A stretch of 64,000 nt of DNA from assembly GCA_963765175.1 (NCBI GenBank), contig CAVXUY010000006.1:24211-88210 (forward strand), given 5' to 3'. Under the pieces are notes generated by a model. The model saw nothing but the letters and a program-made list of their open reading frames with translations, had not been told where the DNA came from and did not search any database. This document shows positions 5,744 through 53,419 of this stretch, piece by piece. This stretch comes from an uncultured Actinomycetes bacterium (GTDB lineage: Bacteria; Actinomycetota; Thermoleophilia; Gaiellales; Gaiellaceae). The number at the start of each line of letters is the position of its first letter. Within the stretch, counting starts at the first letter, position 1. The position numbers and the translations under genes were made by a program.

Positions 5744-7474
5744 ATGAGTAGCCGACTTCGGCGTTCCCTACTTCTGACGACCCTGCTGGCCCTCGTGCTC
5801 GCGGTATCCGGCGCCGCGGTGACGATCGGCCTCGCGGCCAACACGAAGGACACCAAGGTCGCCGGTATTGACGTCGACGCGACGACGATCCCGGAGCTCC
5901 AGGAGCTGATGGACGCGCATCGGCTGAAGTCCGTGCAGCTGACCCAGTTCTATCTGCACCGGATCAAGAAGCTCAACCCGACGCTCAACGCGGTGATCAC
6001 GGTCAGCCCGACGGCGCTCGCCGACGCGCGGGCGGCGGACAAGGCGCGCCGTGGCGGGGACGACCGGCCGCTGCTCGGCATCCCGATCATCGTCAAGGAC
6101 AACGTCAACACGACGGGCATGCCGACGACAGCCGGCTCCTGGGCACTTGCCGGGAGCACGCCGGACGACGCGTTCATCGCCGCCCGGCTCAAGGCGGCGG
6201 GCGCGATCATCATCGGCAAGGCAAACCTCAGCGAGTGGGCGAACTTCCGGTCCGGCCCGTCTTCGTCCGGCTGGAGCGGCATCGGCGGCCAGACCAACAT
6301 GCCGTACGTCCTCGATCGCAACCCATGCGGCTCGAGCTCCGGCTCCGGGGTCGTCGCGGCTGCTGATCTCGCGGTCGCGACCGTCGGCACGGAAACGGAC
6401 GGCTCGATCGTCTGCCCGTCCGGCGCCAACGGCGTCGTCGGGATCAAGCCGACACTCGGGTTGTGGAGCCGCGCGGGCGTCATCCCGATCAGCGCCGACC
6501 AGGACACGGCCGGCCCGATGACACGCAACGTGACCGACGCTGCGGTACTTCTCGGCGCAGGGACCGGCGTCGACCCGGACGACGCGGCGACCGCCGCTCA
6601 GGCCGGCAACGCCTTCACCGACTACACGCAGTTCCTCGACGCCGAGGCTCTCGACGGCGCCCGGATCGGCGTCTGGCGTGACGGAACGTTCGGCCCCTCC
6701 ACCGCGGCGATCGCCGAGCCGATCCTGGCCGACACCATTGCCGCGCTCGAGGCCGAAGGTGCGACCGTGGTCGATCCGACCAATATCGATCTCTCGGCCG
6801 CCGCCAACGAGGGTGCCGCACTCACGTGCGAGTTCAAGACCGACATCCAGACCTACCTCGAGACGTACGTCTCCGGCACGAACCCGGTCGATGGCGAGCC
6901 CTACCCGCAGACCCTCGCGGAGTTGCTCGCGTTCAACAATGCCCATCCCGAGCTCGAGGGGCCTTGGAACAGCGCCATCTTCGTGGACGGTGTCGCGACC
7001 AACGGCCGCGACGCGGCCTGCGCGGCGCTTCGCGCGAGCGTGACACCGCCGGTCCAGGACGAGGTCGACGAGGTCATGGCTGACAACGACCTCGATGCGA
7101 TCATCGCGCTCACGAACACACCGGCCTGGATCACGAACGACAATCCCGAGGGCGGTGACTTTGCCGCAACGGACAGCTTCAATAACTTCATCGGCTCCTC
7201 GACGGCCGCGGCTGCCTCCGGCTATGCGGACATCACGGTGCCGGCTGCGTATCACGGAGTCCTGCCGATGGGCATCACCTTCATCGGCGGCCGATGGGCC
7301 GAGCCGGAACTGATCGGCCTCGCCTACGACTTCGAGCAGGCGACCGACGTTCGGGTTCCGCCGACGTTCATCCCGACCATCGGCGACGACCCCCTGGGCG
7401 GGAGTACCGCGCTGCAGCCCGCGACGACGAAGAACAAGAAGGCTGCGGGTCCGAAGATGACGTCGCTGCGCTAG
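5744..7474 (+). CDS. secreted amidase (amidase-signature family)
   Basis: AS motif CGSSSGSGVVAA..GTETDGSIVCPS. ATG 5744 is preceded by AGGAGG. N-terminus MSSRLRRSLLLTTLLALVLAV looks like a signal peptide, possibly Tat. Confidence 0.9.
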   Translation: MSSRLRRSLLLTTLLALVLAVSGAAVTIGLAANTKDTKVAGIDVDATTIPELQELMDAHRLKSVQLTQFYLHRIKKLNPTLNAVITVSPTALADARAADKARRGGDDRPLLGIPIIVKDNVNTTGMPTTAGSWALAGSTPDDAFIAARLKAAGAIIIGKANLSEWANFRSGPSSSGWSGIGGQTNMPYVLDRNPCGSSSGSGVVAAADLAVATVGTETDGSIVCPSGANGVVGIKPTLGLWSRAGVIPISADQDTAGPMTRNVTDAAVLLGAGTGVDPDDAATAAQAGNAFTDYTQFLDAEALDGARIGVWRDGTFGPSTAAIAEPILADTIAALEAEGATVVDPTNIDLSAAANEGAALTCEFKTDIQTYLETYVSGTNPVDGEPYPQTLAELLAFNNAHPELEGPWNSAIFVDGVATNGRDAACAALRASVTPPVQDEVDEVMADNDLDAIIALTNTPAWITNDNPEGGDFAATDSFNNFIGSSTAAAASGYADITVPAAYHGVLPMGITFIGGRWAEPELIGLAYDFEQATDVRVPPTFIPTIGDDPLGGSTALQPATTKNKKAAGPKMTSLR

Positions 7475-7494
7475 GCGGCGACCATCGCAGACAC

Positions 7495-7526
7495 GACGAA
7501 GCCCGGCCATTCGGCCGGGCTTCGTC
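7495..7526 (+). terminator. intrinsic-terminator-like hairpin after the amidase
   Basis: GACGAAGCCCGGCC-ATTC-GGCCGGGCTTCGTC, a perfect 14-bp stem. Confidence 0.7.
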
Positions 7527-7639
7527 CTGTTGCAGAGCGCGTTGCGGTGAACTACCGAGCGCCTGCCCGTGGCGCCCACGATGCCGGCAGGCGGCGGTCG
7601 GCGGACCATGGCTCCGTAACCCGACAGAAGGAGGCCGTC

Positions 7640-8701
7640 ATGTCTGCAACTGAGGTGCAGCGCTCGAGCGCGAAGGTTGCGACCACCTCGTACCGCGCCG
7701 CGATCGTGCACGACTTCGCGGAGCCGCTCCGCGTCGAGGAAGTCGAGCGGCGCCCGCTCAGGCCTGGTCAGATCCGGGTGCAGATCGAAGCCTCCGGTCT
7801 CTGCCACACGGACATCCACGCCGCTCACGGCGACTGGCCCGTGAAGCCTTCGCCGCCGTTCGTCCCCGGTCACGAAGGTGTCGGGATCGTCGAGGAGCTG
7901 GGCCCTGGCGTCGTCGAGGTCGGAGTCGGCGACCGCGTCGCGCTGCCGTGGCTCGGCTATGCGTGCGGCACCTGCGACTACTGCGTGTCCGGATGGGAGA
8001 CGCTCTGCCACGAGCAGAAGAACATGGGCTATTCCATCGACGGCGGGTTCGGCGAGTACGCGACGGCCTATGCGCGGTACGTGGTCAAGGTTCCCGACAG
8101 GATCGACCCGTTCGACGCGGCGCCGCTCACCTGCGCCGGGGTCACGACGTACAAGGCGGTCAAGGTCGCCGGGACGCGATCCTCGGATCTCGTCGCCGTG
8201 TTCGGCGTCGGCGGCCTCGGGCACATGGCGATCCAGTACGCGCGCATCGCGGGCGGACGAGTGATCGCGGTCGATCTGCACGACGAGAAGCTCGACCTCG
8301 CCCGCGGCCTCGGCGCCGAGTTCACGGTGAACGCGGCGAAGGAGGATCCAGCCGCCGCGATCCAGGCGCTCGGCGGCGCCGACCAGGCGATCGCGCTCGC
8401 TGTCTCGCCGAGGTCGTTCGAGCAGGCGTACCGCTCGCTTCGCCGGGGCGGCACGCTCGTCTTCGTCGCGCTGCCGGCAGAGAACGAGATGACCCTGCCG
8501 ATCTTCGAGACCGTCCTCAACGGCATCACCGTCGTCGGCTCGATCGTGGGCACGCGGACCGACCTGCGCGAGGTCTTCGAGCTGCATGCAGCCGGGAAGA
8601 CCGTCGTCACGCGGGAGATCCGGCCGTTGGAGGAGGTGAACGAGGCGATCGCGGACGTCGAGGCAGGGCGGGTCGCGGCTCGCATCGTCTTCCGCCCGTA
8701 G
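7640..8701 (+). CDS. zinc-dependent alcohol dehydrogenase (MDR family)
   Basis: GLCHTDIH, GHEGVGIV, C-x2-C-x2-C-x7-C structural zinc site, GVGGLGH NAD fold. ATG 7640 follows GAAGGAGG. Confidence 0.9.
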   Translation: MSATEVQRSSAKVATTSYRAAIVHDFAEPLRVEEVERRPLRPGQIRVQIEASGLCHTDIHAAHGDWPVKPSPPFVPGHEGVGIVEELGPGVVEVGVGDRVALPWLGYACGTCDYCVSGWETLCHEQKNMGYSIDGGFGEYATAYARYVVKVPDRIDPFDAAPLTCAGVTTYKAVKVAGTRSSDLVAVFGVGGLGHMAIQYARIAGGRVIAVDLHDEKLDLARGLGAEFTVNAAKEDPAAAIQALGGADQAIALAVSPRSFEQAYRSLRRGGTLVFVALPAENEMTLPIFETVLNGITVVGSIVGTRTDLREVFELHAAGKTVVTREIRPLEEVNEAIADVEAGRVAARIVFRP

Positions 8702-8712
8702 GGGGGTGCATC

Positions 8713-8754
8713 GGATCGTTCCGGCGCCCTCCGTTCCCGGCGCCGGAACGATCC
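8713..8754 (+). terminator. strong hairpin after the ADH gene
   Basis: GGATCGTTCCGGCGCC / GGCGCCGGAACGATCC, a perfect 16-bp stem with a 10-nt loop. Confidence 0.7.
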
Positions 8755-8798
8755 CAGGTCTGTAAGGGTCTCGGAAAAGGTCGAGAAGGAGGTCTCGC

Positions 8799-9518
8799 AT
8801 GTCCACCCTTCCAGCTCACCCAATTCGCGTCGAGGGCAGGCTCGATCCGCAGGTCAGTCGCTGGCTCTGGCTCGTCAAGTGGCTGCTCGCGATCCCGCAC
8901 TACATCGTCCTCTTCTTCCTGTTCATCGCGTTCTTCGTGCTTACGATCGTCGCGTTCTTCGCGATCCTCTTCACGGGGCGCTATCCGCGCGGGATCTTCG
9001 ACTTCAACGTCGGCGTGCTGCGTTGGGCGTGGCGGGTCGCGTTCTACTCGTACGGCGCGCTCGGCACCGACCGCTATCCGCCCTTCACGCTTGCAGACGT
9101 GCCCGAGTACCCGGCGCGCGTCGAGGTGGCGTATCCCGAGCGGCTGTCACGGGGTCTCGTGCTCGTCAAGTGGTGGCTGCTCGTGATCCCGCACTACCTC
9201 TTGCTGAGTGTCTTCCTCGGGGGAGGTGGCTGGTCCTGGGGGATGGGAGACTGGGACGGGAACGACTACGGCCCGGGCGGCGGCCATCCGGGCTTGCTCC
9301 TGCTCCTCGTCGTGTTCGCCGGGATCGCGCTCCTCTTCACGACCCGCTACCCGCGCGGGATCTTCGACTTCGTCCTCGGACTCGACCGATGGGTCCTGCG
9401 GGTCGTCGGGTACGCAGCGTTGATGACCGACTCATATCCGCCGTTCCGGCTGGACCAGGGCGCGGAGGAGCCCGGCGAGCCCGAGCCCGTAGCGGCGCCC
9501 GCGACATCTGAGCTCTGA
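8799..9518 (+). CDS. membrane protein with two DUF4389-like repeats
   Basis: 239 aa; internal duplication (W-L-L-x-IPHY ... RYPRGIFDF ... DRYPPF occurs twice). RBS GAAGGAGG. Confidence 0.75.
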
Positions 9519-9520
9519 CT

Positions 9521-9557
9521 CTGCGTAGTTAGCCACTAGGCCCAGCCCTGCGTAGTT
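9521..9557. promoter_or_regulatory. two direct repeats CTGCGTAGTT upstream of the USP gene
   Basis: Copies at 9521-9530 and 9548-9557 in the 103-nt gap before ATG 9622. Confidence 0.2.
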
Positions 9558-9621
9558 CACCGCACGACGAATCGGGATGCTCGCGGACGCTACGGAGATG
9601 AGCGTCCAGCACGATCGACGC

Positions 9622-9948
9622 ATGGCAGCGCGACCGAGGCAGATTCTCGTGGGCTTCGACGGATCGGAGACATCCGAGCGCGCGCTCGACGCCGCCGCCG
9701 ACCTCGTCGGATACGGCTCGAGCCTGGCCGTCGTGCACGTCCGTCGCGCCGACTCTCCGGAAGGCGACATCATCGGCCGCGCCCGCGAGCAGCTCATCCA
9801 GCGTCAGGTCCCGGCTCGCTACGTCGAGGCTTGCGGTCATCCCGCAGAGGAGATCGTGGCGGCCGCGGAAGCGGTCGGCGCCGACCTCGTGGTGGTCGGA
9901 CGCAGGAAAGCGCTCAGGCGGACGCGATCTGCCAGTAGTGCGTCGTAG
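9622..9948 (+). CDS. universal stress protein family, with an atypical or truncated C-terminus
   Basis: ILVGFDGSETSERAL ... ADLVVVGRR, then KALRRTRSASSAS-stop instead of the G-x2-G-x9-GS tail. Start chosen at the third ATG of the ORF. Confidence 0.6.
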   Translation: MAARPRQILVGFDGSETSERALDAAADLVGYGSSLAVVHVRRADSPEGDIIGRAREQLIQRQVPARYVEACGHPAEEIVAAAEAVGADLVVVGRRKALRRTRSASSAS

Positions 9949-10148
9949 CAGACGTCCTCACGACGGCGATCGCGGCTCTGGCGCTCTTGCGCCTGCGCTA
10001 CTCGGCAGCTGCCCCGACGGCTCCCGCAGCGCGCGCCCGGCACCGGGTCGAGCGCCGTTCGACTCGCGGTCGCGCCGCGAAGCGGAAGCCGAGGCCGAAG
10101 CGGCGGTCGCGGACGCGCTGAGGGCGGCGGAGCGTCCGGGACGCGACA

Positions 10149-12818
10149 ATGGACACGGTGACCTCCGTCGCGGACGCAGTAGACGTCATCCTTCGAGACG
10201 GCCGCACACTACGACTCCGCCCGCCGCGGAGGGAGGACGCGGACGCGCTGCTGGCGTTCTTCCGCTCGCTCTCCGAGCGCAGCCTCTACCTCCGCTTCCA
10301 CGGCTACGCGGGTCTGGACGCCCGGCTCGTCGAGCCGCTCCTCGAGCCGGACTGGGTGGAGCGGGGCGCGCTCCTCGGCGCTCTCGCAGACACCGACGGC
10401 GAGCAGGTGGTCGCCGTCGCCAACTACGTGCGGCTCCGCGACCCCGCCGTCGCGGAGGCTGCGTTCGCGGTCGCGGACGCGCACCAGCGACGCGGCATCG
10501 GCACGCGGCTGCTCGAGCGGCTGGCAGCGCGCGCCTCGGAGGTCGGCATCGAACGCTTCGTCGCCGAGGTGCTCGCCGACAACCGAGACATGCTCGGCGT
10601 CTTCGAGGCGGCCGGGTTCGAGCTCACCCGCGAGCTCGACGGCGGCGAGCTCGAGGTCCAGTTCCCGATCGCGCCGACCGAGCACTTCCTGGAACGCGTG
10701 GAGGAGCGCGACCACACCGCGGTCACCGCCTCGCTACGGCCGTTCTTCGAGCCGCGGAGCGTCGCTGTGATCGGCGCTTCCCGGCGCCGGGGCTCGATCG
10801 GGGGCGAGCTCTTCCGGAACATCCTCATCGGCGACTTCGCCGGCGCTGCCTACCCCGTGAACCGGGACGGCGAGCCGGTCGCGGGCGTGCGGGCGTACGC
10901 CTCGATCGAGGAGATCCCGGACGACGTGGAGCTCGCGGTCATCTCGCTGCCCGCCGGCGCCGTGCTGGGGGCGGCCGAGCAGGCGCTCCGCAAGGGCGTC
11001 CGCGCACTGGTCGTCATCTCGGCCGGCTTCGCCGAGGTCGGAAGCGAGGGCGCCGAGCGCCAGGAACGGCTGCTAGCACTCGTTCGGGCGCACGGCGCGC
11101 GGCTGATCGGCCCCAACTGCCTCGGGATCGCCGTCGCCGGTCCGAGCCTGAACGCGACGTTCGCCGCCAAGTCGGCCCCGAGCGGCAATATCGGCTTCTC
11201 CTCGCAGAGCGGCGCGCTCGGCCTCGCGCTGCTGGAGGCGGCCGAGGCGCGCGGGCTCGGCCTCTCCGCGTTCGTCTCGATCGGGAACAAGGCGGACGTC
11301 TCCTCGAACGACCTGCTCGAGTGGTGGGAGGACGACGAGGCGACGGAGGTGGTCCTGCTGTACGTGGAGTCGTTCGGGAACCCGCGTCGCTTTGGTCGTG
11401 TCGCCCGCAGGGTCGCACGGCGCAAGCCGATCCTCGCTCTGAAGAGCGGGACAACGGCCTCCGGCCAGCGCGCCGCCAGCTCGCACACGGCCGCCCTCGC
11501 GGGCTCGGAGGCGGCGGTCGATGCGCTCTTCCAGCAGGCCGGCGTGATCCGCGCCGCCTCGCTCGAGGAGCTGATCGACGTCGCTGCGCTCCTCTCGAGC
11601 CAGCCCGAGCCGGCGGGACGCAGAGTCGCGGTACTGACGAACGCCGGCGGCCTCGGGATCCTCTGCGCCGACGCGTGCGAGGCCGTGGGCCTGGAGCTTC
11701 CGGAGCTCTCGCCCGAGACGAGAGAGGCGCTCGCGGCGCTGCTCTCGCCGGAGGCGAGCGTGGCCAATCCCGTCGACATGCTCGGCGGTGCGACGGCGGC
11801 GACGTATGCCGAGGCGCTTCCGCGCCTGCTCGCCGATCCTCAGGTCGACGCGGCGATCGTCCTCTTCGTCCCCACGGTGACCGCGTCGGCCGACGACGTC
11901 GCCGTGGCCGTCGCGGATGCTTCCGCCGCGGCCGACTCCGGCAAACCCGTCCTCGCGGTGGTCATGACGTCGAGTGGCATCCCGGCGGCTCTCCGGCGAC
12001 GCGGTGGACACGTCGCCGCGTTCTCGTATCCGGAGTCGGCCGCGCGGGCGCTGGGCCACGCGGCGGCGAGGGCCGAGTGGCTACGGCGACCGTACGGGAG
12101 CATCCCGGTTCCGGAAGGGATCGACCGGCAGGGAGGCGAGCGCATCCTCGAGCGGGCGCTCGCCGCCGGCGACGACACCTGGCTCGGCCCGGGCGAGACG
12201 CGTGAGCTCCTTCAGGCGTACGGCATCGTCGTAGTCGAGGAGCGGCTCGCGGGGAGCCCCGACGAGGCCGCCGCGTACGCACGTGAGGTCGGCTTCCCAG
12301 TGGTGGTCAAGACGGCGACCCCCGGAGCGCACAAGACGGAGACGGGAGGCGTGGCGCTCGACCTCCAAGACGATGAAGCGGTGCGAGTGGCGGCCGAGCG
12401 CATCGGCGGCCCCATGCTCGTCCAGCCGATGGTTCAGCGCGGAGTCGAGCTCCTCACCGGCCTCATCCAGGATCCGGTGTTCGGGCCGCTCGTCGCTTTC
12501 GGCCCGGGCGGTGTCCTTGCGGAGCTGATCGGGGAGGCCGGCTTTCGAATCGCGCCCTTGACCGACGTCGACGCCGAGGAGCTCGTCACGGGCGGCAAGG
12601 CCGGGCGGCTCGTCAGCGGTTTCCGAGGCGCGCCTGCGGCGGATGTCGCGGCATTGAGCGACCTCGTGCAGCGGCTCGCTCGACTCGGCGAGGATCTGCC
12701 GGCGGTCGCCGAGCTCGACCTCAATCCCGTGCTCGCGGGACCGAACGGATACGTGGCGGTCGATGCTCGCATCCGGGTGCGGCGCTCCGAGCCAATCGCG
12801 CGTGCGAAGACCTGGTAG
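10149..12818 (+). CDS. bifunctional GNAT acetyltransferase / NDP-forming acyl-CoA synthetase-like protein (Pat-type protein acetyltransferase architecture)
   Basis: 889 aa; N-terminal GNAT (QRRGIGTRLLE), then a CoA-binding domain (VAVIGASRRRGSIGG) and an ATP-grasp domain. Confidence 0.9.
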   Translation: MDTVTSVADAVDVILRDGRTLRLRPPRREDADALLAFFRSLSERSLYLRFHGYAGLDARLVEPLLEPDWVERGALLGALADTDGEQVVAVANYVRLRDPAVAEAAFAVADAHQRRGIGTRLLERLAARASEVGIERFVAEVLADNRDMLGVFEAAGFELTRELDGGELEVQFPIAPTEHFLERVEERDHTAVTASLRPFFEPRSVAVIGASRRRGSIGGELFRNILIGDFAGAAYPVNRDGEPVAGVRAYASIEEIPDDVELAVISLPAGAVLGAAEQALRKGVRALVVISAGFAEVGSEGAERQERLLALVRAHGARLIGPNCLGIAVAGPSLNATFAAKSAPSGNIGFSSQSGALGLALLEAAEARGLGLSAFVSIGNKADVSSNDLLEWWEDDEATEVVLLYVESFGNPRRFGRVARRVARRKPILALKSGTTASGQRAASSHTAALAGSEAAVDALFQQAGVIRAASLEELIDVAALLSSQPEPAGRRVAVLTNAGGLGILCADACEAVGLELPELSPETREALAALLSPEASVANPVDMLGGATAATYAEALPRLLADPQVDAAIVLFVPTVTASADDVAVAVADASAAADSGKPVLAVVMTSSGIPAALRRRGGHVAAFSYPESAARALGHAAARAEWLRRPYGSIPVPEGIDRQGGERILERALAAGDDTWLGPGETRELLQAYGIVVVEERLAGSPDEAAAYAREVGFPVVVKTATPGAHKTETGGVALDLQDDEAVRVAAERIGGPMLVQPMVQRGVELLTGLIQDPVFGPLVAFGPGGVLAELIGEAGFRIAPLTDVDAEELVTGGKAGRLVSGFRGAPAADVAALSDLVQRLARLGEDLPAVAELDLNPVLAGPNGYVAVDARIRVRRSEPIARAKTW

Positions 12819-15966: not shown

Positions 15967-17614
15967 CGCAGCGGAACCTCGGCGACGATGGTGGTCCCTG
16001 CCCCCTCGGCAGCCTCGATCCGCAGGCGTCCGCCGACGAGACCGACTCGCTCCCGCATGCCGGCGAGGCCGAGGACGTCATGGCCGACTGCCGCCGGGTC
16101 GAAGCCGGCGCCGTCGTCTTCGATCACGGCGGCGACCGACATGTCCCGGTGCGTGAGGAGGATGCTGACCCGAGTGGCGCCTGCGTGCTTGACCACGTTC
16201 GTGAGCGCCTCCTGGACGATACGGTAGAGGGCGGTCTCGACCTCGTTCGGCAGTCGGCCGTCTCCCAGCTGCGCCTCGAGGTCGACCTGCACGCCCGTCT
16301 GCTCCTGGAAGGTCGCCGCGAGGCGCTCGACCGCGGTCGCCAGGCCGAAGTCGTCCAGGGCGGAGGGCCGGAGCTCGACGGCAAGCCGGCGCACGTCCTG
16401 GAGGGTCGAGACGACGAGCTCGCGGAGAGAGGAGAGCGCCGCTCGGTCTGCGTCGCCGGCGGCGCTCTGCTCGAGCGGTTTCAGCCCGAGCAGGATCGAC
16501 GTGAGGGCCTGCCCGGTCTCGTCGTGCAGCTCGCGGGCAAGGCGTTTGCGCTCGAGCTCCTGGGCCTCGACGACGCGGCGCAGCGCGTCTCGGCCGACGC
16601 GCTCGGAGAGGTCTACCGCGACTGCCGCGCGCTGGGCGAAGGTCTCCGCGAGACGGAGATCATCGTCGGTGAAGCTCGGGCTGGGGCCTGAGCGGTCGTG
16701 CGCGATCATGACGCCGATCGCGCGGCCGCGGGCGACGAGCGGGACGAAGAGCGCCGAGTGGACGCCGAGCCGCCGCGCCGCCTGCTGGTCGATCTCCGGA
16801 TCCTCGAGCACCGAGTCGACCCGCTCGCTGTGCCGGCGCTCGAGCACACGTCCGGCTTTCGAGCCGCCGAACTCGAGCTGCATGCCGACGATGCCGTAGC
16901 TCCCCTCGCCCTCGGCCGCGGCGACGTCGAGCGCGTCCCCCTGCGGGATGGCGATGAGCACGAGCCTGGCGTCGACGAGCTCGCGCAGCCGGCGGGCGAC
17001 GAGGCTGAGCAGGGGCTCGAGCTCGATCTCGGAGGCGAGCGCGTTGCCGATCTCGTTCAGCGACTCGAGCTGGCGCAGCCAGCGCGTCGAGCTCTCGTAC
17101 AGCCGGGCGTTCTCGATCGCGACCGCCGCCTGGGTCGCGAGCATCTGCGTCAGCTCCTCGTCCTCCTCCGTGAAGTCGGCGCCGCCCTCCTTCTCCGTCA
17201 GGTAGAGGTTGCCGTAGGCGACGCCGCGGAGGAGGATCGGGACGCCGAGAAAGGTGCTCATCGCGGGTGATTTTGCGGGAACCCGACCGAGCGCGGGTCG
17301 TCGGCGAGGTCGTGGAGGCGCAGCGGGCGAGCCTCGCGGATGAGGACGCCGAGGATTCCTCGGCCGCGAGGAAGATCGCCGATGGCCGCGTGCGTCTCGG
17401 GGTCGATGCCCGTCGTCACGAAACGCTCGAGCGCCTGCCCCGACTTGCCGATGACGCCGAGCGCGGCGTAGCGGGCCCCGGTCAGCTCGGCGGCCGTCTC
17501 GACGAGCCGCTGCAGAAGCATGTCCAGGGAGAGCTCGGAGCTGAGGGCGATGCCGGCGTCGACGAGGACGCGAAGGCGATCGACTGCTGGCCCGAGACGG
17601 CTCCACGCGGCCAT
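15963..17614 (-). pseudogene. tandem-GAF sensor histidine kinase (DevS/DosT-like architecture), split by a 1-nt frameshift near 17262
   Basis: ORF 17258-17614 encodes GAF-A and ends ...SVGFPQNHPR-stop. The frame of ORF 15963-17606 continues AMSTFLGVPILLRG, then GAF-B, HisKA_3 (ELHDETGQ) and HATPase. Restoring one nt gives GFPQNHPxMSTFLGVPI. Confidence 0.85.
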
Positions 17615-37907: not shown

Positions 37908-37980
37908 TGGGCCGGGTTGGGATCGAACCAACGACCTTGGGATTAAAAGTCCCCTGCTCTACCAACTGAGCTACCGGCCC
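37908..37980 (-). tRNA. tRNA-Lys (anticodon UUU)
   Basis: Reverse strand GGGCCGGTAGCTCAGTTGGTAGAGCAGGGGACTTTTAATCCCAAGGTCGTTGGTTCGATCCCAACCCGGCCCA folds as a cloverleaf with loop CU-UUU-AA. No encoded CCA. Confidence 0.9.
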
Positions 37981-42725: not shown

Positions 42726-42798
42726 GCCCCCATCGACTAGCGGCCCAGGTCGCAGCCCTTTCAAGGCTGTAGCGCGGGTTCGAATCCCGCTGGGGGCA
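42726..42798 (+). tRNA. tRNA-Glu (anticodon UUC)
   Basis: GCCCCCATCGACTAGCGGCCCAGGTCGCAGCCCTTTCAAGGCTGTAGCGCGGGTTCGAATCCCGCTGGGGGCA; acceptor GCCCCCA/TGGGGGC, loop CU-UUC-AA. Confidence 0.9.
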
Positions 42799-47472: not shown

Positions 47473-47706
47473 TCAGCGGTGGGTCAGTTCAGCCCGCCCG
47501 CCTCCAAGCTCCCGCTCCTCGATCCGCAGGTAGCTCGCTAGTTCAGGATCATCGCCACCCGAACAACTGAGCGAAGAAGGGGTTAGAGAACCAGCACGTT
47601 CTCGGCCGGACATGGGGCTAGACGGCTGAGCGATACGAGCCTTGAATCGATCGAGCCGATGCGTCAGAGTCTCTGCGAGCACTGGGGGCCAGTGCATACC
47701 GTCCAC
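47473..47706 (-). CDS. hypothetical ORF or gene fragment ending ...DDPELASYLRIEERELGGGR
   Basis: Shares the YL-x-IEER motif with 47116-47379. No family recognised. Confidence 0.3.
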   Translation of the reverse strand: MDGMHWPPVLAETLTHRLDRFKARIAQPSSPMSGRERAGSLTPSSLSCSGGDDPELASYLRIEERELGGGRAELTHR

Positions 47707-47721
47707 TCAGGGGGTGGGGAC

Positions 47722-48117
47722 ATGATGAAGGTATTTGTTGCGGCCGTCCTCGCGACGGCGCTCTTCGTCGGCATTGCAGCGCAACCGGCTCCGGCCGTCG
47801 TGCATGAGATCTACGCGGCCTGGTGCGCGGGCAAGGGTGAGATCGAACCGCCGGGTCTGTCCCGCGAAGGCAGCAAGAACTTCGCGATGCCCGTGCTCAA
47901 GAGCGGGGCCGTGTCGGTTCATCCGTTCACCGGCGCGCAAGGCCCTGGCCTTCTGGTCGACATCGACTTCGACGCGCCGAACGTCAAGATCATCCCGACC
48001 GGCAACATCATCGTGATCGGACAGACGCCCGCCGGGCCTCTGTATCTGGAGGAGTTCATGATCGATCCGAACTTCCCAGCGTTCTCGAACTGCGCGAACC
48101 TGCAGATCCCGGGCTGA
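47722..48117 (+). CDS. hypothetical secreted protein (131 aa)
   Basis: Signal peptide MMKVFVAAVLATALFVGIAAQPAPA; G-rich RBS; two Cys. Confidence 0.6.
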   Translation: MMKVFVAAVLATALFVGIAAQPAPAVVHEIYAAWCAGKGEIEPPGLSREGSKNFAMPVLKSGAVSVHPFTGAQGPGLLVDIDFDAPNVKIIPTGNIIVIGQTPAGPLYLEEFMIDPNFPAFSNCANLQIPG

Positions 48118-48302: not shown

Positions 48303-48743
48303 TCACGCACTCGACGGCATGAGCCGGAGCTCTCCGGTCCACGACGTAGTCGTCCCGGCGGCGCCCACGAGGTTGCTTCGCTGGTGGACTTGTGCGCCCG
48401 CGAACGAGCCCTCCGTGACCGTGCCGTTCAGCACGATGAACCCGGCTGGGCTGACATGCAGATTCATCTCGGCCGTGAACGAGATGCCTCCGACCGTGAT
48501 CCGCTCGGTCGCTGTCAGCTGGGCGGCGTTGCCGGTGGCCCGGAAGCTCGTGATCTGCATCACGATCGTGACGCCGCCGGCGGTTCCCACGCAGAGACCA
48601 CGGGTTTCGTCGCACGTCTTCGCGTACTGGATCACGATCGGCGCGCTGGACGCGGACGCCTGCGCCGCCCCGAATGCAACGACCCCGACGACCGCCGCGA
48701 CGACGGTGACGAGCAATCCGAAGAGTGTCTTGATGTTGGTCAT
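48303..48743 (-). CDS. hypothetical secreted protein (146 aa)
   Basis: Signal peptide MTNIKTLFGLLVTVVAAVVGVVAFGAAQASA; AAGGAG RBS; beta-rich sequence with a Cys pair. Confidence 0.6.
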   Translation of the reverse strand: MTNIKTLFGLLVTVVAAVVGVVAFGAAQASASSAPIVIQYAKTCDETRGLCVGTAGGVTIVMQITSFRATGNAAQLTATERITVGGISFTAEMNLHVSPAGFIVLNGTVTEGSFAGAQVHQRSNLVGAAGTTTSWTGELRLMPSSA

Positions 48744-48978: not shown

Positions 48979-49307
48979 GTGAGGCGAGCGGCGTTTCAGC
49001 GGAGTAGCCTGCGGTTGATTAATGCGCGTGTTCTAGACCTGAGGCGATCAGCAGCAGTGGTGCTCGTGGTGGCCGGTGCGGTCGCCTTGGCTGCGCCGGC
49101 GGGCGCGGCCATCCAGGCGACGACGGTGGACGCCGCAGCTGAAGCGCAGGCGGTGATCCCGCTGCTCTACAAGAACTGCACGAACTTCAACAGAGGTATC
49201 CGCATGGCGTCGGCCGCTTGACGGCGCGAGACAGGACCACGAGCGGCGACCCGGTGACTAACTTCAAGCGCAGCACCCGGATCTACAACATCGCCATGTC
49301 GTACTAA
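48979..49307 (+). pseudogene. secreted YKNCT/YPHGVG-type protein (family usually carrying an Excalibur Ca-binding domain), frameshift near 49195
   Basis: Signal-like RRSAAVVLVVAGAVALAAPAGAA, then LYKNCTNFNR / YPHGVGRLTARDRTTSGDPVTNFKRSTRIYNIAMSY in two frames. No DxDxDG motif follows. Confidence 0.6.
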
Positions 49308-49511
49308 ACGCACGGTTCGATCGCACGGGACGACACGCCGCAAGACCAGAGCAGTTGACCAGCGAGTCGACCAGTTCGTCGCCAGCGCCGGCTACTACGC
49401 GCTGGCGTTAGCCCGCGAGCAGGCGCCGCGAACGATCGAGAGATCGAGGGGGAGGCGTGGGGCGTACGCGTTGCGGGCCTGACCGGTGTCGGGGACACGC
49501 GGCGTTCCTGA

Positions 49512-49853
49512 TCAGGGAGCGAGAAGGACGAGCAGGACGGACACGGCTCCCACCGCGATCCCGACCGCCGCGAGAGCCAGCAAGAAAGCCTCGCCGGTGT
49601 GCGGTTCCCGGTCTTCCCGCAGCGCGGCCTGCAGCTCTCGGTAGTGGACGATCCCGTACACCATGGCTGCCAGACCGGAGGCAGCCAGCGCCGTTCCCAA
49701 TGCGATATACGGCCAGTTCGTGCCGCCGACGACCTCGGGCAGGACGCGCCCGATTGCGAATCCCGCCGCGATCCCGGCCAAACCAGTACGCCACCATGCG
49801 AGATACGTGCGCTCGTGCGCGAGTTGCGTCCGGTGGACTTCGCCGCTCGCCAT
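49512..49853 (-). CDS. DUF202 (YidH-like) membrane protein
   Basis: 113 aa; QLAHERTYLAWWRTGLA motif plus three TM helices. Start at the internal ATG. Confidence 0.7.
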   Translation of the reverse strand: MASGEVHRTQLAHERTYLAWWRTGLAGIAAGFAIGRVLPEVVGGTNWPYIALGTALAASGLAAMVYGIVHYRELQAALREDREPHTGEAFLLALAAVGIAVGAVSVLLVLLAP

Positions 49854-50112
49854 TTCAGGGGGCCGAGCATAGGCGTGTTCGAGCGCCGAGTGTGCAGGCG
49901 CTCGCCGCAGCCGCGTCTCCGCGCTCTGCCCACTTGGACGCCACGCGGCCAACGTAACGAACTCACCTCGTCTGTCAACCACGCGCTCGTGAGAGTCCAC
50001 ATGGCCAAGACGCCCGGCGCGTAGCTCACCGACAACGGTTTCCATTTCGCCGACGCTTCGCCAGAAAAACGCCAGAACTGCAGAACGGCGCGTGCAAGTC
50101 GGCGGGGCGCGG

Positions 50113-50407
50113 TCACTCACCGCGCGCTAGTACTCCCAACCGCTTGTGGTCGATGGCATGCACCAGCGCGTCCGCATGACGATGCACGAGCTCCCGTCCG
50201 ACTCTGCAGTGCGCCGGAAGACCCACGTCACGCGCAGCGACCAGTCCTGCTCCGGCAGGCCCCCGATCGTCCCGTGCTGTCGCTCGATGACGACGAGCAC
50301 CGCCAAGTCGCCGGAGGTGTAAGTCTCCACGACCTCGACCTTCGCCTCGCCGCCGCGCGAAGCGGCCGCCCCATAGGGAGCGGCCGCGTGTGGTCGATGG
50401 AAGCTGA
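50113..50407 (-). pseudogene. NTF2/SnoaL-like (DUF4440-like) gene remnant, 5'-truncated and frameshifted near 50193
   Basis: ...VEVVETYTSGDLAVLVVIERQHG...LRVTWVFRRTAESDG / ELVHRHADALVHAIDHKRL. A G-run one nt short explains the shift. The missing N-terminus would lie under the 50408-51049 gene. Confidence 0.6.
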
Positions 50408-51049
50408 CTAATGCGCGAGCGGCGGATGTCGCGTCGCGCGGACTGCGAGCGTGAGTCCGAGCATCAGCAGGATCCCGATGCCTAGCCCGATCCCGATCTG
50501 CGACCACTCGATCTCAGTACCGGAGCTCGAGACGGACACCTGCGTCGGCTCGTTGACCGGCTTGGCCTGGAACCGATTGTCGTTGGCGACGAAGTGGGCA
50601 TCCGAGCCTGACGTGCGACGGGCTGCAACATGCCCGAAGAGCGTCGGGTCGTTGCGGTATGCGCGGCCGAGCGCCTCGCCGCGAAGGATGACCGCCTGGG
50701 TCGCCGGGTCCTGTCCGAAGAGAGTGGGGTCGTTGCGGTATGCGCGGCCGAGCGCCTCGCCGCGAAGGATGACCGCCTGGGTCGCCGGGTCCTGCCCGAA
50801 GAGCGTGGGGTCGTTGCGGTATGCGCGGCCGAGCGCCTCGCCGCGAAGGATGACCGCCTGGGTCGCCGGGTCCTGCCCGAAGAGCGTGGGGTCGTTGCGG
50901 TATGCGCGGCCGAGCGCCTCGCCGCGAAGGATGACCGCCTGGGTCGCCGGGTCCTGCTGGACGACCGGCTGATCCTGTGCGAACGCGGCCGGAACGGCAA
51001 GGACAAGGGACGCTCCGAGAACCGCGATGGGGGTCAAGCTGCGATACAT
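50408..51049 (-). CDS. secreted, C-terminally membrane-anchored protein with 4 x 27-aa identical repeats
   Basis: Signal peptide ...AVPAAFA-QDQ; (QDPATQAVILRGEALGRAYRNDPTLFG) x4; C-terminal TM helix IGIGLGIGILLMLGLTLAV followed by RATRH. AAGGAGG RBS. Confidence 0.75.
   Translation of the reverse strand: MYRSLTPIAVLGASLVLAVPAAFAQDQPVVQQDPATQAVILRGEALGRAYRNDPTLFGQDPATQAVILRGEALGRAYRNDPTLFGQDPATQAVILRGEALGRAYRNDPTLFGQDPATQAVILRGEALGRAYRNDPTLFGHVAARRTSGSDAHFVANDNRFQAKPVNEPTQVSVSSSGTEIEWSQIGIGLGIGILLMLGLTLAVRATRHPPLAH
50633..50956. repeat. 81-nt tandem repeat x4 inside the CDS
   Basis: Units 50633-50713, 50714-50794, 50795-50875, 50876-50956. Units 3 and 4 are identical; units 1 and 2 differ by 1 and 2 synonymous nt. 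Confidence 0.9.
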
Positions 51050-51272
51050 GGCCTTCCTCCTTCTCCTCGGTGACCTTCATGGCCACCTGCATCGAGGCTA
51101 TGGAGGTGGGCGTGTGCCTACAACGGGAAAACCCCTCGTGTATGGCCGCGACCGGTACCTGCGGAAGTCCGCAAAGTCACCAACGAGCCCGGTTCCGCTT
51201 GGCGTCTGGCATGGCCGCATTTCGCACAACCATGCGGGTTCCCGCCCCGCGTTCAAACACTGCTGGGCACCC

Positions 51273-52187
51273 TCAGTCCGGGAACGAGTCGAGGTCGGTG
51301 CGGGCGCGCTCGAGGACAGCAGGGTCGAAGTTGCGGCCCGTGATGACGAGGGCCATCAGGCCCGGAGTGTCGAGCTTGCGAGCTGCGGCAAGTGCTGCTG
51401 CGGCTGACGGCTCGACCTCGACGCCCGCATCGTGGCAGGCGACGAGTGCCGCGGCGATCTCGCGCTCCGAGACGCGCACTACCAAGTCGACCGTCTCGCG
51501 CAGCCGCGATACGGCGAGCGGGATTGCGACGCGCGTCGCCAGGCCATCCGCGATCGTCGTCCCGCGCGGCGCCGCGACCGGCTTGCCGGCCTCGAGGCTC
51601 GCCGCCATGACCGGCATGTCCTTCGCAACGACGCCGACATGGGTGGTGCCCGGAGACCGCACGAGGGAGGCACCGATGCCGCCCGCGAGCGCACCGTTGC
51701 CGATCGGCGTGACGACGGCCGCGGGCGGCGCGTCGAGCTGGTCGAGGATCTCGTCGCCGATCGCGCGGTACGCGTCGTACTGAAGCGGCTCGGCGCCGTC
51801 CTCGAAGAACGGGAGGCCCTCCGAGCGCGCCCAGACGTGCGCGTAGTGCTTCGCGTCGTCGAAGTCCTCGCCCTCGACGCGGACGTCCGCGCCGAGACTC
51901 CGGAGCAACGCGAGCTTGCTCTGCGTGGAACCCGGAGGCACGAACACGATCGCCCGCGAGCCGTGCTCGCGGCACGCCCAGGCGACCGCCGCGCCATGGT
52001 TTCCCGTCGAGGAGGTGACGATCGTGGTGTGGCCGTCCCCGGCGAGCTCACGGACGACCGGGAGCGCCGCTCGCCACTTGAACATGCCGAGCTCGTGGAC
52101 GTCCTCGCGCTTGAGCCAGAGGTCGTCGCGGCCCGCATAGGTCGCGAGCGCGGCGGGAGCGGGCTCCAGCGGGGTCGGAGGGCTCAT
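51273..52187 (-). CDS. PLP-dependent enzyme of the threonine/serine dehydratase (Trp-synthase beta-like) fold
   Basis: LKREDVHELGMFKWRAA (PLP Lys), SSTGNHGAAVAWA. ATGA overlap with the upstream peptidase. Confidence 0.8.
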   Translation of the reverse strand: MSPPTPLEPAPAALATYAGRDDLWLKREDVHELGMFKWRAALPVVRELAGDGHTTIVTSSTGNHGAAVAWACREHGSRAIVFVPPGSTQSKLALLRSLGADVRVEGEDFDDAKHYAHVWARSEGLPFFEDGAEPLQYDAYRAIGDEILDQLDAPPAAVVTPIGNGALAGGIGASLVRSPGTTHVGVVAKDMPVMAASLEAGKPVAAPRGTTIADGLATRVAIPLAVSRLRETVDLVVRVSEREIAAALVACHDAGVEVEPSAAAALAAARKLDTPGLMALVITGRNFDPAVLERARTDLDSFPD

Positions 52188-53302
52188 GCGCAGAACTCGG
52201 CTGCGGTCGCGAGCACGATGGCTGCGGTCTGCTCGACGTCTGCGAGCTCGATCCACTCGACCTCCGCGTGCGCGCCCTCACCGCGAGGGCCGAACACGAC
52301 GGACGGGATGCCGGCGGCGGCGAAGAGCGCGGCGTCGGTCCAGTAGGGGACGCCGACGATCTCGGGCGGCCCCCCGAGCAGCGGGGTCGCGTTCAGGAGC
52401 AGGCGATCGACGATCGGGGAGTCTGCCGGGGTCTCCATGGGCTCGCGCACGAACCGCGTCGTGACGGTCGCCTCGTGCGCGATCTCGCGGATCTGCGCCT
52501 CGACGAGCTCGGCCGTCTCGCCCGGCAGCGTCCGTCGCTCGATCTGGAGTACACAGCGCTCGGGATACGTCGACAGCTCCTGCCCGCCCTCGATCAGCGA
52601 CGCGTGCAGGGACGCGTAGCCGAGGAGCGGATGGCCCGGGACGCCGACGCGGAGACGCTGGTCGAACTTGTCGAGCGCCACGAGCACCGGCCCCATGCGC
52701 GCAATCGCGTCGACGCCCAGGTCATAACGCGAGCCGTGCGCCGCGACGCCCTGGGTCTCGATCTCCAGCCAGAGGAATCCGCGGTGCGCGATCGCGAGGC
52801 GCATGTCGGTCGGCTCGGTGACGATCGCCGCGTCGGCTCGCACGCTGGCCGCGATCCGTTCGGAGCCGATGCTCAACGCCTCCTCGTCTGCGACCGCGGT
52901 CACGACCAGGTCACCGGCGAGGGGCAGGTCGACCGCGCGCGCGGCGGCGAGCATGATCGCCGCGAGCCCGCCCTTCATGTCGTACGAGCCGCGGCCGTAG
53001 AGCCGGTCGCCGTCGACGCGCGGTGTCGTGCCGGCGTCCGGGCCGCCGAGCGCGACCGTGTCGAGGTGCGCGTTCAGGAGCAGCGTCCGCCCGCCGCCCG
53101 ACCCGCGGACGCGGCCGACGACGTTCACGCGGCTGGGTGCGAGCTCCTCGAGCTCGACCTCGATCCCGCGACCTTCGAGCCAGTCCGCGACGAAGCGCCC
53201 GATCTCCGCCTCTCCCGACCCGCCGGGAACGAGCGTCGGGTTCACGGACTCGATCGCGACGAGCTGGGAGACGAGCTCGGCGGCCTCGGAGTGCTCGCTC
53301 AC
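52184..53302 (-). CDS. M20-family metallopeptidase (ArgE/DapE/CPG2-like)
   Basis: 372 aa; LLNAHLDTV, RLYGRGSYDMKGG, VADEE, HAEVEWI motifs. Confidence 0.85.
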   Translation of the reverse strand: MSEHSEAAELVSQLVAIESVNPTLVPGGSGEAEIGRFVADWLEGRGIEVELEELAPSRVNVVGRVRGSGGGRTLLLNAHLDTVALGGPDAGTTPRVDGDRLYGRGSYDMKGGLAAIMLAAARAVDLPLAGDLVVTAVADEEALSIGSERIAASVRADAAIVTEPTDMRLAIAHRGFLWLEIETQGVAAHGSRYDLGVDAIARMGPVLVALDKFDQRLRVGVPGHPLLGYASLHASLIEGGQELSTYPERCVLQIERRTLPGETAELVEAQIREIAHEATVTTRFVREPMETPADSPIVDRLLLNATPLLGGPPEIVGVPYWTDAALFAAAGIPSVVFGPRGEGAHAEVEWIELADVEQTAAIVLATAAEFCA

Positions 53303-53346
53303 GCGCGCGAGCGTACCGCGTGGTTTGTGTCACCCTTCCGCGGTTC

Positions 53347-53419
53347 GGGCGGTTAGCTCAGCTGGTAGAGCGCCTGCTTTACACGCAGGTGGTCGCAGGT
53401 TCGAGTCCTGCACCGCCCA
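53347..53419 (+). tRNA. tRNA-Val (anticodon UAC)
   Basis: GGGCGGTTAGCTCAGCTGGTAGAGCGCCTGCTTTACACGCAGGTGGTCGCAGGTTCGAGTCCTGCACCGCCCA; loop UU-UAC-AC. Confidence 0.9.

Follow-up and report, generated by a model that had tools for sequence, protein, structure and literature searches.

A predicted membrane-anchored repeat protein of an uncultured Gaiellaceae bacterium and the undescribed multigene family around it

We analysed a stretch of 64,000 nucleotides (nt) of an uncultured Actinomycetes bacterium of the family Gaiellaceae (assembly GCA_963765175.1, contig CAVXUY010000006.1, positions 24,211 to 88,210), which will be referred to as the window and whose positions are used throughout. It carries a gene for a protein of 213 amino acids (aa) which is built around four identical units of 27 residues. 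A preliminary description, made from the letters of the sequence, had placed this gene at 50408-51049; the position proved correct, and the strand, which had not been given, is the minus strand. The gene starts with ATG, preceded by the ribosome-binding site GGAGAAGGAGGAAGG at 51052-51066, and has the following parts.

50408 to 51049, minus strand: complete gene, 213 aa plus stop codon (TAG, 50408-50410), according to the list of open reading frames (ORFs), the translation and the homologues
50978 to 51049, minus strand: predicted Sec-type signal peptide, aa 1-24, MYRSLTPIAVLGASLVLAVPAAFA followed by Q, from a hydropathy peak at aa 4-24 and an A-x-A motif
50633 to 50956, minus strand: array of 4 × 81 nt encoding 4 × QDPATQAVILRGEALGRAYRNDPTLFG, aa 32-139, from Tandem Repeats Finder (TRF) and unit-by-unit comparison
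50876 to 50956, 50795 to 50875, 50714 to 50794 and 50633 to 50713, minus strand: the four units of the array
50534 to 50632, minus strand: non-repeated linker of 33 aa, aa 140-172, with the pre-anchor motif D-x-H-F-x-A-N-D-N-R-F-x-x-K-P
50411 to 50533, minus strand: C-terminal module, aa 173-213, consisting of SSGTEIEWSQ, a Gly-rich transmembrane (TM) helix and a tail, from the logo of 178 unique family members
50441 to 50497, minus strand: predicted TM helix, aa 185-203, IGIGLGIGILLMLGLTLAV, Kyte-Doolittle peak 2.42
50411 to 50440, minus strand: predicted cytoplasmic tail RATRHPPLAH, directly after the TM helix

Hydropathy analysis of the 213-aa protein revealed two hydrophobic segments only, aa 1-24 and aa 185-203, and neither Cys nor an LPXTG-type pentapeptide is present in its sequence. 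The layout proposed in the preliminary description, a signal peptide followed by repeats and a C-terminal TM segment with a basic tail and without LPXTG, was thereby borne out. Cleavage after A-F-A, in front of Q, was assigned by rule, without a dedicated predictor. The G+C content at third codon positions (0.85) is in the range of the genes of this window, which has 69% GC.

TRF detected the array at 50631-50957 with a period of 81, 4.0 copies, 97% matches and a score of 633, and it is the sole strong tandem repeat within the 64 kb. A weak tandem duplication of 30 nt was also detected at 16593-16651 (1.9 copies, 83% matches, TRF score 81). At the protein level the four 27-aa units are 100% identical. 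The preliminary description had called them nucleotide-identical as well, with 0-2 substitutions between units, which is true of units 1 and 2 but not of the others: unit 3 differs at two sites and unit 4 at one, resulting in pairwise distances of 0-3 nt. All these differences are synonymous and fall on third codon positions.

An orthologue for comparison was found on a 1.9-Mb contig of a metagenome-assembled genome (MAG) at a locus designated L001. It likewise encodes 213 aa with four units and shares 86% protein and 88% DNA identity with the window gene. Units of the two genomes differ from each other at 7-13 nt (mean 10.0), whereas within either array they differ at 0-3 nt (mean 1.5 in the window and 2.7 in L001), and seven substitutions are fixed between every unit of one genome and units 2-4 of the other. 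The last units (W4 of the window and L4 of L001) are the closest pair across the genomes and keep states that have been lost from the inner units, as expected if the array predates the split and its edges are homogenised less than the inner units. Comparing the window with L001, the ratio of nonsynonymous to synonymous change (omega) was 0.076 for the units, whereas the signal peptide plus pre-repeat part had 0.42, the linker 0.34 and the anchor 0.27; as fixed differences are counted once per unit, the ratio is informative here and the absolute counts are not. The low omega of the units indicates strong purifying selection on the unit peptide. The units of the array evolve in concert and are homogenised by recombination between units, so that the concerted evolution and the selection on the peptide suggested in the preliminary description are both seen in the data.

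Unit 1 of L001 (10090-10175 of that locus) reads GSRVSQRSDALG instead of GRAYRNDPxLFG, since it contains a +1 insertion and, at a distance of 31 nt, a -1 deletion. Either the frame was truly shifted and restored, or the long reads had two indel errors at this place.

The number of units varies among close relatives, as had been anticipated, the variation being one between genomes: the window and L001 have four units, P0001 and P0002 have two units each which have already diverged, and P0003 has a single one. The latter three proteins, whose unit counts were read from the protein sequences, share 83-91% identity with that of the window when the array is left aside. Unit number thus shifts on a time scale of about 10% sequence divergence.

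The preliminary description had not recognised the repeat family, and searches of Pfam, NCBIfam and PDB profiles likewise placed the unit in no described family; HscB, the best PDB profile match (E=0.013), was rejected. No Pfam or NCBIfam model scored above threshold for the whole protein, the isolated C-terminus or a repeat dimer, the latter two being scanned at E<=10. When 50 diverse members of the family described below were scanned singly, no Pfam or NCBIfam family was matched in more than one of them. From all these scans, EFG_III, sucCoA-alpha and DUF883_C (the last in 1/50 members) were set aside as chance matches below threshold. No identical copy of the window protein is recorded elsewhere. 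Its homologues are numerous, as a word-indexed search of a database of 5.8 billion proteins yielded 36 homologues of the whole protein, all of them metagenomic, annotated as hypothetical and devoid of a Pfam domain. A metagenome scan with the single protein as query gave no match, and an alignment-based scan retrieved distant members only. Using the C-terminal 74 aa as HMMER query, 325 clusters (50% identity) were obtained at E<=1e-3. In all 150 matches listed of the 325, the match extends to the final residue of a small protein of 43-254 aa.

The homologues are conserved towards their two ends, in the signal peptide and most strongly over the final ~40 residues, and not in the repeats. From 178 unique sequences, the consensus of the C-terminal module is S-S-G-x-[ED]-[ILV]-[ED]-W-x-Q-[ILV]-G-x-G-x-G-x-G-x-x-L-x-x-G-L-x-x-x-x-R-x-T-R-x-R-P-L-A-H. 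The W (position 0), G+6 and the terminal H are present in 100% of these members, G+10 and L+13 in 99%, Q+2 in 98%, G-5 in 90% and S-6 and E-1 in 82% each, while R+22, R+25 and R+27 are conserved to 83-88%, interspersed with a conserved T and followed by the conserved P-L-A-H. The distance from the W to the C-terminus is the same in 162/178 members. At the other end, a heuristic (M-x(0-4)-[RK] plus a hydrophobic run; SignalP was not used) recognised a signal-peptide-like N-terminus in 164/178 unique members; the family N-terminus reads M-x-R-x-I-S, and P19 is invariant in alignment A1. In the linker, F152, D156, R158, F159 and P163 are invariant in the subfamily alignment A3, and distant members carry D-R-F-x-A-N-D-N-R-F or D-D-R-F-R-x-D-P as pre-anchor motif.

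The eleven genomic loci with homologues all derive from MAGs labelled Actinomycetes, Actinobacteria or Gaiellaceae. Several loci carry tandem paralogues, with four copies in L010 and L012, three in L004 and two in L002 and L014, compared to one copy in the 64 kb of the window. Viral contigs contained no family member, and the four matches to the leader pattern found there lie in unrelated sequence and are due to chance. On these matches, the repeat protein is a member of a large undescribed multigene family, so far seen only in Gaiellaceae-like soil Actinomycetota. The preliminary description had treated the gene on its own; that it belongs to a multigene family whose members share anchor, signal peptide and 5′ leader had not been recognised there.

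Between these constant ends, the ectodomains vary strongly. They consist of differing arrangements of a few short motifs, each present once or as 2-4 tandem copies, and their mean column identity is 19%; often they cannot be aligned. One motif is P-Q-W-x-Q-A-L-E-A-R-S-E-A-L-N-x-x-Y-G-L-G, of which the window unit, with D-P-A-T-Q-A-V-I-L-R-G-E-A-L-G-R-A-Y, is a variant; family-wide, the unit motif can be written as Q-A-L-x-x-R-[GS]-E-A-L-[GN]-R-x-Y. Further motifs are P-D-A-F-E-R-A-V, M-L-D-A-R-E-R-A-F-G-A-K-R, Y-R-D-A-F-E-R, D-F-W-N-Y-D…T-S-P-G, G-R-S-L-V-F-D-N-H-R and I-R-D-H-G-D-A-T-Q-A-K-L. Matched against this vocabulary, the 27-aa unit is the first-helix motif of the family in amplified form and not a new invention.

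The genes of the family also share their 5′ region. In the window, this leader and the hairpin behind the gene comprise the following elements.

51050 to 51152, minus strand: 5′ leader and putative promoter region, ~95% identical to L001, which is above the identity of the coding sequence
51132 to 51145, in the leader: proximal box CCATACACGAGGGG
51118 to 51127, in the leader: conserved segment CCCGTTGTAG
51095 to 51100, in the leader: -10-like TAGCCT
51069 to 51087, in the leader: 7-bp hairpin GGTGGCC-ATGAA-GGTCACC
50362 to 50387, minus strand: GC-rich hairpin GCGGCCGCTCCC-TAT-GGGGCGGCCGC, 20 nt past the stop codon, putative factor-independent terminator without U-tract

The leader was found in the window, in L001-L016, L021 and L023 (alignment A5), including paralogues with unalignable ectodomains; the family genes in L018 and L019 lack it. 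Its core, TAGCCTCG-N3-8-GGTG, lies directly upstream of a family gene in 29/29 instances in the window and the loci. Besides the invariant TAGCCTCG, a conserved CCCGTTTC is present, as are boxes of the type GTCAAAC-NC-R-GGGGG, of which the window and L001 have one and the canonical loci described below two, ~22 nt apart. The TAGCCT presumably represents a -10 element, as by our own reading, made without a tool, it fits the actinobacterial TAnnnT pattern.

The leader hairpin has the consensus GGTGGyC/GGryCACC with G-C, G-U and A-U found at one pair. Together with a CCTC/GAGG pairing, 95.8% of alignment cells are paired, compared to 33-66% in slid controls, and the covariation score of the leader stems was reached by 2/500 shuffles, a modest support that is limited by the high conservation. 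Pairing of the Shine-Dalgarno (SD) sequence with an upstream CCTCC box is kept across the leaders, but any SD sequence complements CCTCC, and with TAGCCT as -10 element, transcription would start downstream of the box. The leader may have a longer structured 5′ untranslated region (5′-UTR) which masks the SD sequence. Rfam gave no match within 49000-52500 of the window. Taken together, these elements suggest a shared promoter with regulator boxes, followed by a 5′-UTR stem-loop.

The hairpin downstream of the gene folds in both genomes, with a stem of 11 bp in the window and z = -4.9 in L001, and the differences between the two are compatible with the structure. A scan with consensus promoters and terminators was negative, and no T-run follows the hairpin; a promoter and a terminator are proposed because of conservation and folding. 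Homology between the window and L001 is confined to 50352-51152, from ~100 nt 5′ of the ATG to just past the hairpin. As delimited by this alignment, leader, gene and putative terminator hairpin make up a block of ~800 bp. Outside the block, no synteny between the window and L001 was detected: the window gene is flanked upstream by a gene for a PLP-dependent dehydratase-like protein and one for an M20 peptidase and downstream by a pseudogene and a DUF202 gene, whereas L001 has an M50/CBS protease, a methyltransferase, tRNA-Arg and a YdjM-like gene. An apparent shared tRNA (53337-53408) was discarded, as it matches tRNA-Val with tRNA-His by generic tRNA similarity.

The copies of the window and of L001 are dispersed members, lying outside a canonical locus that was found in L002-L008, L010 and L011. 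There, dnaK, dnaJ, clpB, a gene for a ~950-aa regulator of the AAA_16/TPR/LuxR (GerE) type and 1-4 tandem family genes follow each other in this order and span ~7000-12000 in each of these loci. In all of them, the regulator gene directly precedes the family genes on the same strand, with a gap of ~50 nt as measured in L002. Downstream, genes for an F420H2-quinone-reductase-like protein, a PNP_UDP_1 protein and a multi-pass membrane protein are found and, further on, one for an LCP protein (LytR_cpsA_psr). Within ±8 kb of the window gene, no genes of the sortase, rhomboid, exosortase-like or LuxR type were present, and the conserved loci examined contained no sortase, rhomboid, exosortase or CPBP-type gene.

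Next to the block, the window contains the remnant of a second gene; this and the tRNA genes of the window are listed here.

50113 to 50361, minus strand: NTF2/SnoaL-like (DUF4440/SnoaL_3) pseudogene, the 3′ ~80 codons, from sub-threshold Pfam matches and a repaired translation
37908 to 37980: tRNA-Lys(ttt)
42726 to 42798: tRNA-Glu(ttc)
53347 to 53419: tRNA-Val(tac)

The remnant scores 19-22 bits with DUF4440 (cut-off 25.2), covers profile positions 41-101 of 107 and lacks ~45-65 N-terminal codons, full-length relatives having 127-142 aa. A deletion of 1 nt at ~50192-50195 has changed GAC-TGG-GAG to GAC-GGG-AG; with this deletion repaired, the remnant encodes a peptide that aligns from end to end with P0037 and many others at 94% identity, and the best named match is from Gaiellaceae. 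Blastn of the remnant against L024, the locus of P0037, covers only 50362-50105 of the window. At the junction the window agrees with L001 up to …GGCCGCT and with L024 from CGCGGCGGCGAGG… on, ~8-10 nt being common to both, which suggests microhomology-mediated joining, although short GC-rich matches are weak evidence. The preliminary description had stated that the repeat gene replaced the 5′ end of a SnoaL-like gene. The block does adjoin a remnant truncated at its 5′ end, with which a replacement would be compatible, but no empty site without the repeat gene was found, as the three other SnoaL-like loci all have different neighbours.

Near-copies of the 3′ ~260 nt of the remnant occur in L024, L025 and L026, each in a different context, and several SnoaL-like copies have unrelated N-terminal extensions, as if they had repeatedly been truncated or recombined near one point. 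The DUF202 (YidH-like membrane protein) ORF at 49512-50120 on the minus strand overlaps the 3′ end of the remnant by 8 nt with its listed start; its N-terminal ~95 residues have no domain match, and the true start may be further downstream. The stretch downstream of the repeat gene is seemingly rich in small exported proteins without assigned function, as three small ORFs whose N-termini resemble signal peptides and which match no Pfam model were found at 47659-48117 (plus strand), 48303-48743 (minus strand) and 48979-49221 (plus strand).

Considering all these features, we favour, with moderate confidence, the reading that the window gene encodes an envelope protein which is anchored in the membrane with type I topology and has a helical ectodomain of variable size. 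The protein would be exported by Sec and its signal peptide cut after AFA, leaving repeats and stalk outside and the 10-residue tail inside. The exposed part would consist of four identical helix-plus-turn units of 27 residues on a stalk of 33 residues and would probably act through length and valency, serving in the wall zone as a spacer, a coat or a surface for multivalent binding, and not as one folded domain. The anchor would be kept in the mature protein, packing on itself or on a partner helix via its G-x-G-x-G-x-G face, and the tail might be read by some cytoplasmic component. We propose a permanent anchor because its sequence and length are more constrained than a disposable hydrophobic plug requires and because the Gly face resembles helix-packing motifs.

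For the family as a whole, the constant parts would be a promoter/leader of ~100 nt, the signal peptide and the anchor module of 40 residues, whereas the ectodomain would be assembled anew from a limited set of short helical motifs that are duplicated in tandem, deleted and homogenised in frame. The array in the window would then represent a lineage-specific amplification of the helix Q-A-L-x-x-R-G-E-A-L-G-R-x-Y, with the number of units setting the exposed length, and the ~800-bp block would have come to lie beside the NTF2/SnoaL-like gene, whose 5′ half it probably displaced. Topology, retention of the anchor, packing between TM helices, promoter assignment and envelope function are the parts that we infer. 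Several points weigh against this reading. A tripartite C-terminus together with several paralogues and signal peptides is also the look of a cleaved sorting signal, and the count of four units rests on a metagenome assembly. The AlphaFold2 model, computed from the single sequence, has a helix of ~19 residues per unit and one in the TM segment, but with a predicted local distance difference test (pLDDT) score of 54 it serves as a hint at secondary structure only, and an amphipathic character of the unit helix was dropped from consideration as 23% of shuffles reach the same value.

The last 40 residues might instead constitute a new tripartite sorting signal. SSG-x-E-I-E-W-x-Q would then be the recognition site of a membrane endopeptidase or transpeptidase, which would cut off TM helix and tail and link the repeats to the cell wall or to a lipid. 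Domains of this kind (LPXTG/sortase, PEP-CTERM/exosortase, GlyGly-CTERM/rhombosortase, MYXO-CTERM/myxosortase and the orphan WGxxGxxG-CTERM) have been defined by Haft by eight attributes: C-terminal position, several carriers per genome, at least three near-invariant signature residues, a central TM segment, 2-5 basic residues at the end, signal peptides on most carriers, many pairs of carriers that are alike in the signal only, and homologues without the signal or with another one, plus a co-distributed enzyme (bioRxiv 10.1101/2023.06.07.544157; PMC3237569; PMC1569441). The family shows the first four, as the 150 listed matches extend to the final residue, up to four copies occur per locus, S-6, G-5, E-1, W0 and Q+2 form a signature and the TM helix lies at aa 185-203; signal peptides are found in 164/178 members, and the passenger ectodomains are very diverse. 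The fifth attribute is seen in part, since R+22, R+25 and R+27, 83-88% conserved, are embedded in a specific T/P-L-A-H motif rather than in a simple Arg cluster. The seventh is doubtful: the ectodomains have 19% mean column identity, yet signal peptides and 5′ leaders are homologous, so that the carriers look like one paralogous family. The eighth was not seen, as all whole-protein homologues carry the module except the frameshifted P0035, and the neighbourhoods contain no candidate enzyme; sortase, rhomboid, exosortase or CPBP-type genes are missing both near the window gene and from the conserved loci examined. In addition, conservation is as high in TM helix and tail as in the signature motif, their length is fixed and the final His invariant, which is unusual for a segment to be discarded. 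The C-terminus was also checked as a known sorting signal, the layout having reminded the preliminary description of one, and this idea was not upheld: the isolated 50-aa and 74-aa ends matched none of the named NCBIfam sorting domains at E<=10, nor did any of the 50 diverse members. We regard processing of this kind as unlikely.

A different role of the module would follow if the invariant tail R-x-T-R-x-R-P-L-A-H-COOH were bound by the TPR domain of the AAA+/TPR/LuxR regulator. The proteins would then be membrane tethers or co-sensors feeding back on their own promoters via the leader boxes, with the variable repeats adjusting sensing or spacing. C-terminal peptides are common ligands of TPR domains, the tail is of constant length with a free-carboxylate His in 100% of members, the regulator gene stands immediately upstream on the same strand in L002-L008, L010 and L011, and leader-bearing family genes carry GTCAAAC-NC-R-GGGGG boxes beside a -35/-10-like region. 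On the other hand, the proposal is inferential throughout, the conserved gene order beside the housekeeping genes dnaK-dnaJ-clpB was seen in fairly close relatives and may be historical, and the copies in the window and L001 have no regulator nearby and one box only. We consider it very improbable. Size variation of the array at high frequency within a population, that is, the behaviour of a contingency locus, is slightly less so, though still improbable. Long near-identical repeats are good substrates for recombination, and copy number does differ among close relatives, but the differences were seen between genomes ~10% diverged and not within a clone. Moreover, a unit of 81 nt (27 codons) keeps the frame and permits size variation only, without on/off switching, and no simple-sequence tract was found in the promoter or coding region, nor a tandem array in the leader at the TRF threshold. 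Finally, the four units could be an assembly artefact of a gene that truly has one or two, as near-identical 81-nt units are hard for short-read assembly, the exact protein is not recorded elsewhere and close relatives have 1-2 units. This is the least credible of the alternatives: units 3 and 4 carry their own synonymous single-nucleotide polymorphisms, by which at least three distinct units are resolved, the frame is intact through the array, and an independent MAG has four units of the same length with private substitutions on its 1.9-Mb contig.

Gaiellales-like Actinomycetota are apparently frequent in soil metagenomes, yet very few of them have been cultured, and their cell envelope is almost undescribed for that reason. 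The family described here, with at least 325 clusters (50% identity) outside every protein-family library, combines a rigid anchor and a conserved leader with an exterior that evolves by repeats; leader and anchor together provide a ready marker for these genes in soil metagenomes. Should the module act in sorting or as a signalling tether, it would represent a new system of envelope biogenesis. In its boldest form, which we put forward tentatively and hold to be rather unlikely, the W-x-Q / G-x-G-x-G-x-G / R-x-T-R-x-R-P-L-A-H-COOH module would be a new Gaiellales-specific device for envelope targeting or signalling, either a sorting signal with its own processing enzyme or a tether read by the AAA+/TPR/LuxR regulator that controls the leader, and would drive rapidly re-tailored repeat coats. 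Otherwise, the family still shows cleanly how repeats evolve in concert and are shuffled as modules in a free-living bacterium, to which escape from host immunity, the usual explanation for repeat variation, does not apply.

Compared with known systems, the module resembles the domains defined by Haft in its order of signature motif, TM segment and basic residues at the C-terminus, and in having several carriers with signal peptides and diverse passengers. It differs from them in that TM helix and tail are conserved in sequence, fixed in length and end with P-L-A-H-COOH, and in that the carriers are all small, homologous at both ends and share a 5′ leader, with no cognate enzyme found in their neighbourhoods. 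The tail anchors of the DUF883/ElaB type with their 'glycine zipper' came up once among the 50 members, as a weak match to DUF883_C below threshold (E=0.0095); ElaB-type proteins, unlike the window family, have no signal peptide and face the cytoplasm. In the c-subunit of ATP synthase, a G-x-G-x-G-x-G motif lets the helices of the c-ring pack very closely. The window TM helix similarly has Gly at every second position (IGIGLGIG), without homology, and by this analogy the anchor is suggested to self-associate or to dock on a partner helix.

With regard to the repeats, the alpha C and Rib proteins of group B streptococci are wall-anchored by LPXTG, have folded Ig-like repeats of ~80 aa and belong to host-associated Firmicutes. 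The window protein is like them in its long, near-identical, in-frame and homogenised repeats whose copy number varies between strains or relatives and sets the size, and in having a signal peptide and a membrane segment at opposite ends, but it has a unit of 27 aa predicted to be a helix, another anchor, a free-living soil actinobacterium as host and no sequence similarity to them in Pfam and PDB profile searches. The Vlp and Vsa proteins of mycoplasmas are held by an N-terminal lipid anchor and are switched on and off via homopolymer tracts in the promoter or by site-specific inversion. Here, the likeness lies in tandem multigene clusters with a conserved 5′ region and signal peptide and in external in-frame repeats that vary between paralogues, and the difference in a C-terminal anchor, in the absence of lipobox and Cys and in that no switch element was seen. 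As in concertedly evolving tandem-repeat surface proteins, the units are closer to each other within a genome than between orthologues, and their copy numbers are 1, 2 and 4. The phenomenon itself, concerted evolution of repeats in an exported anchored protein, is thus an ordinary one, displayed on an undescribed chassis of anchor and leader in a poorly known lineage.

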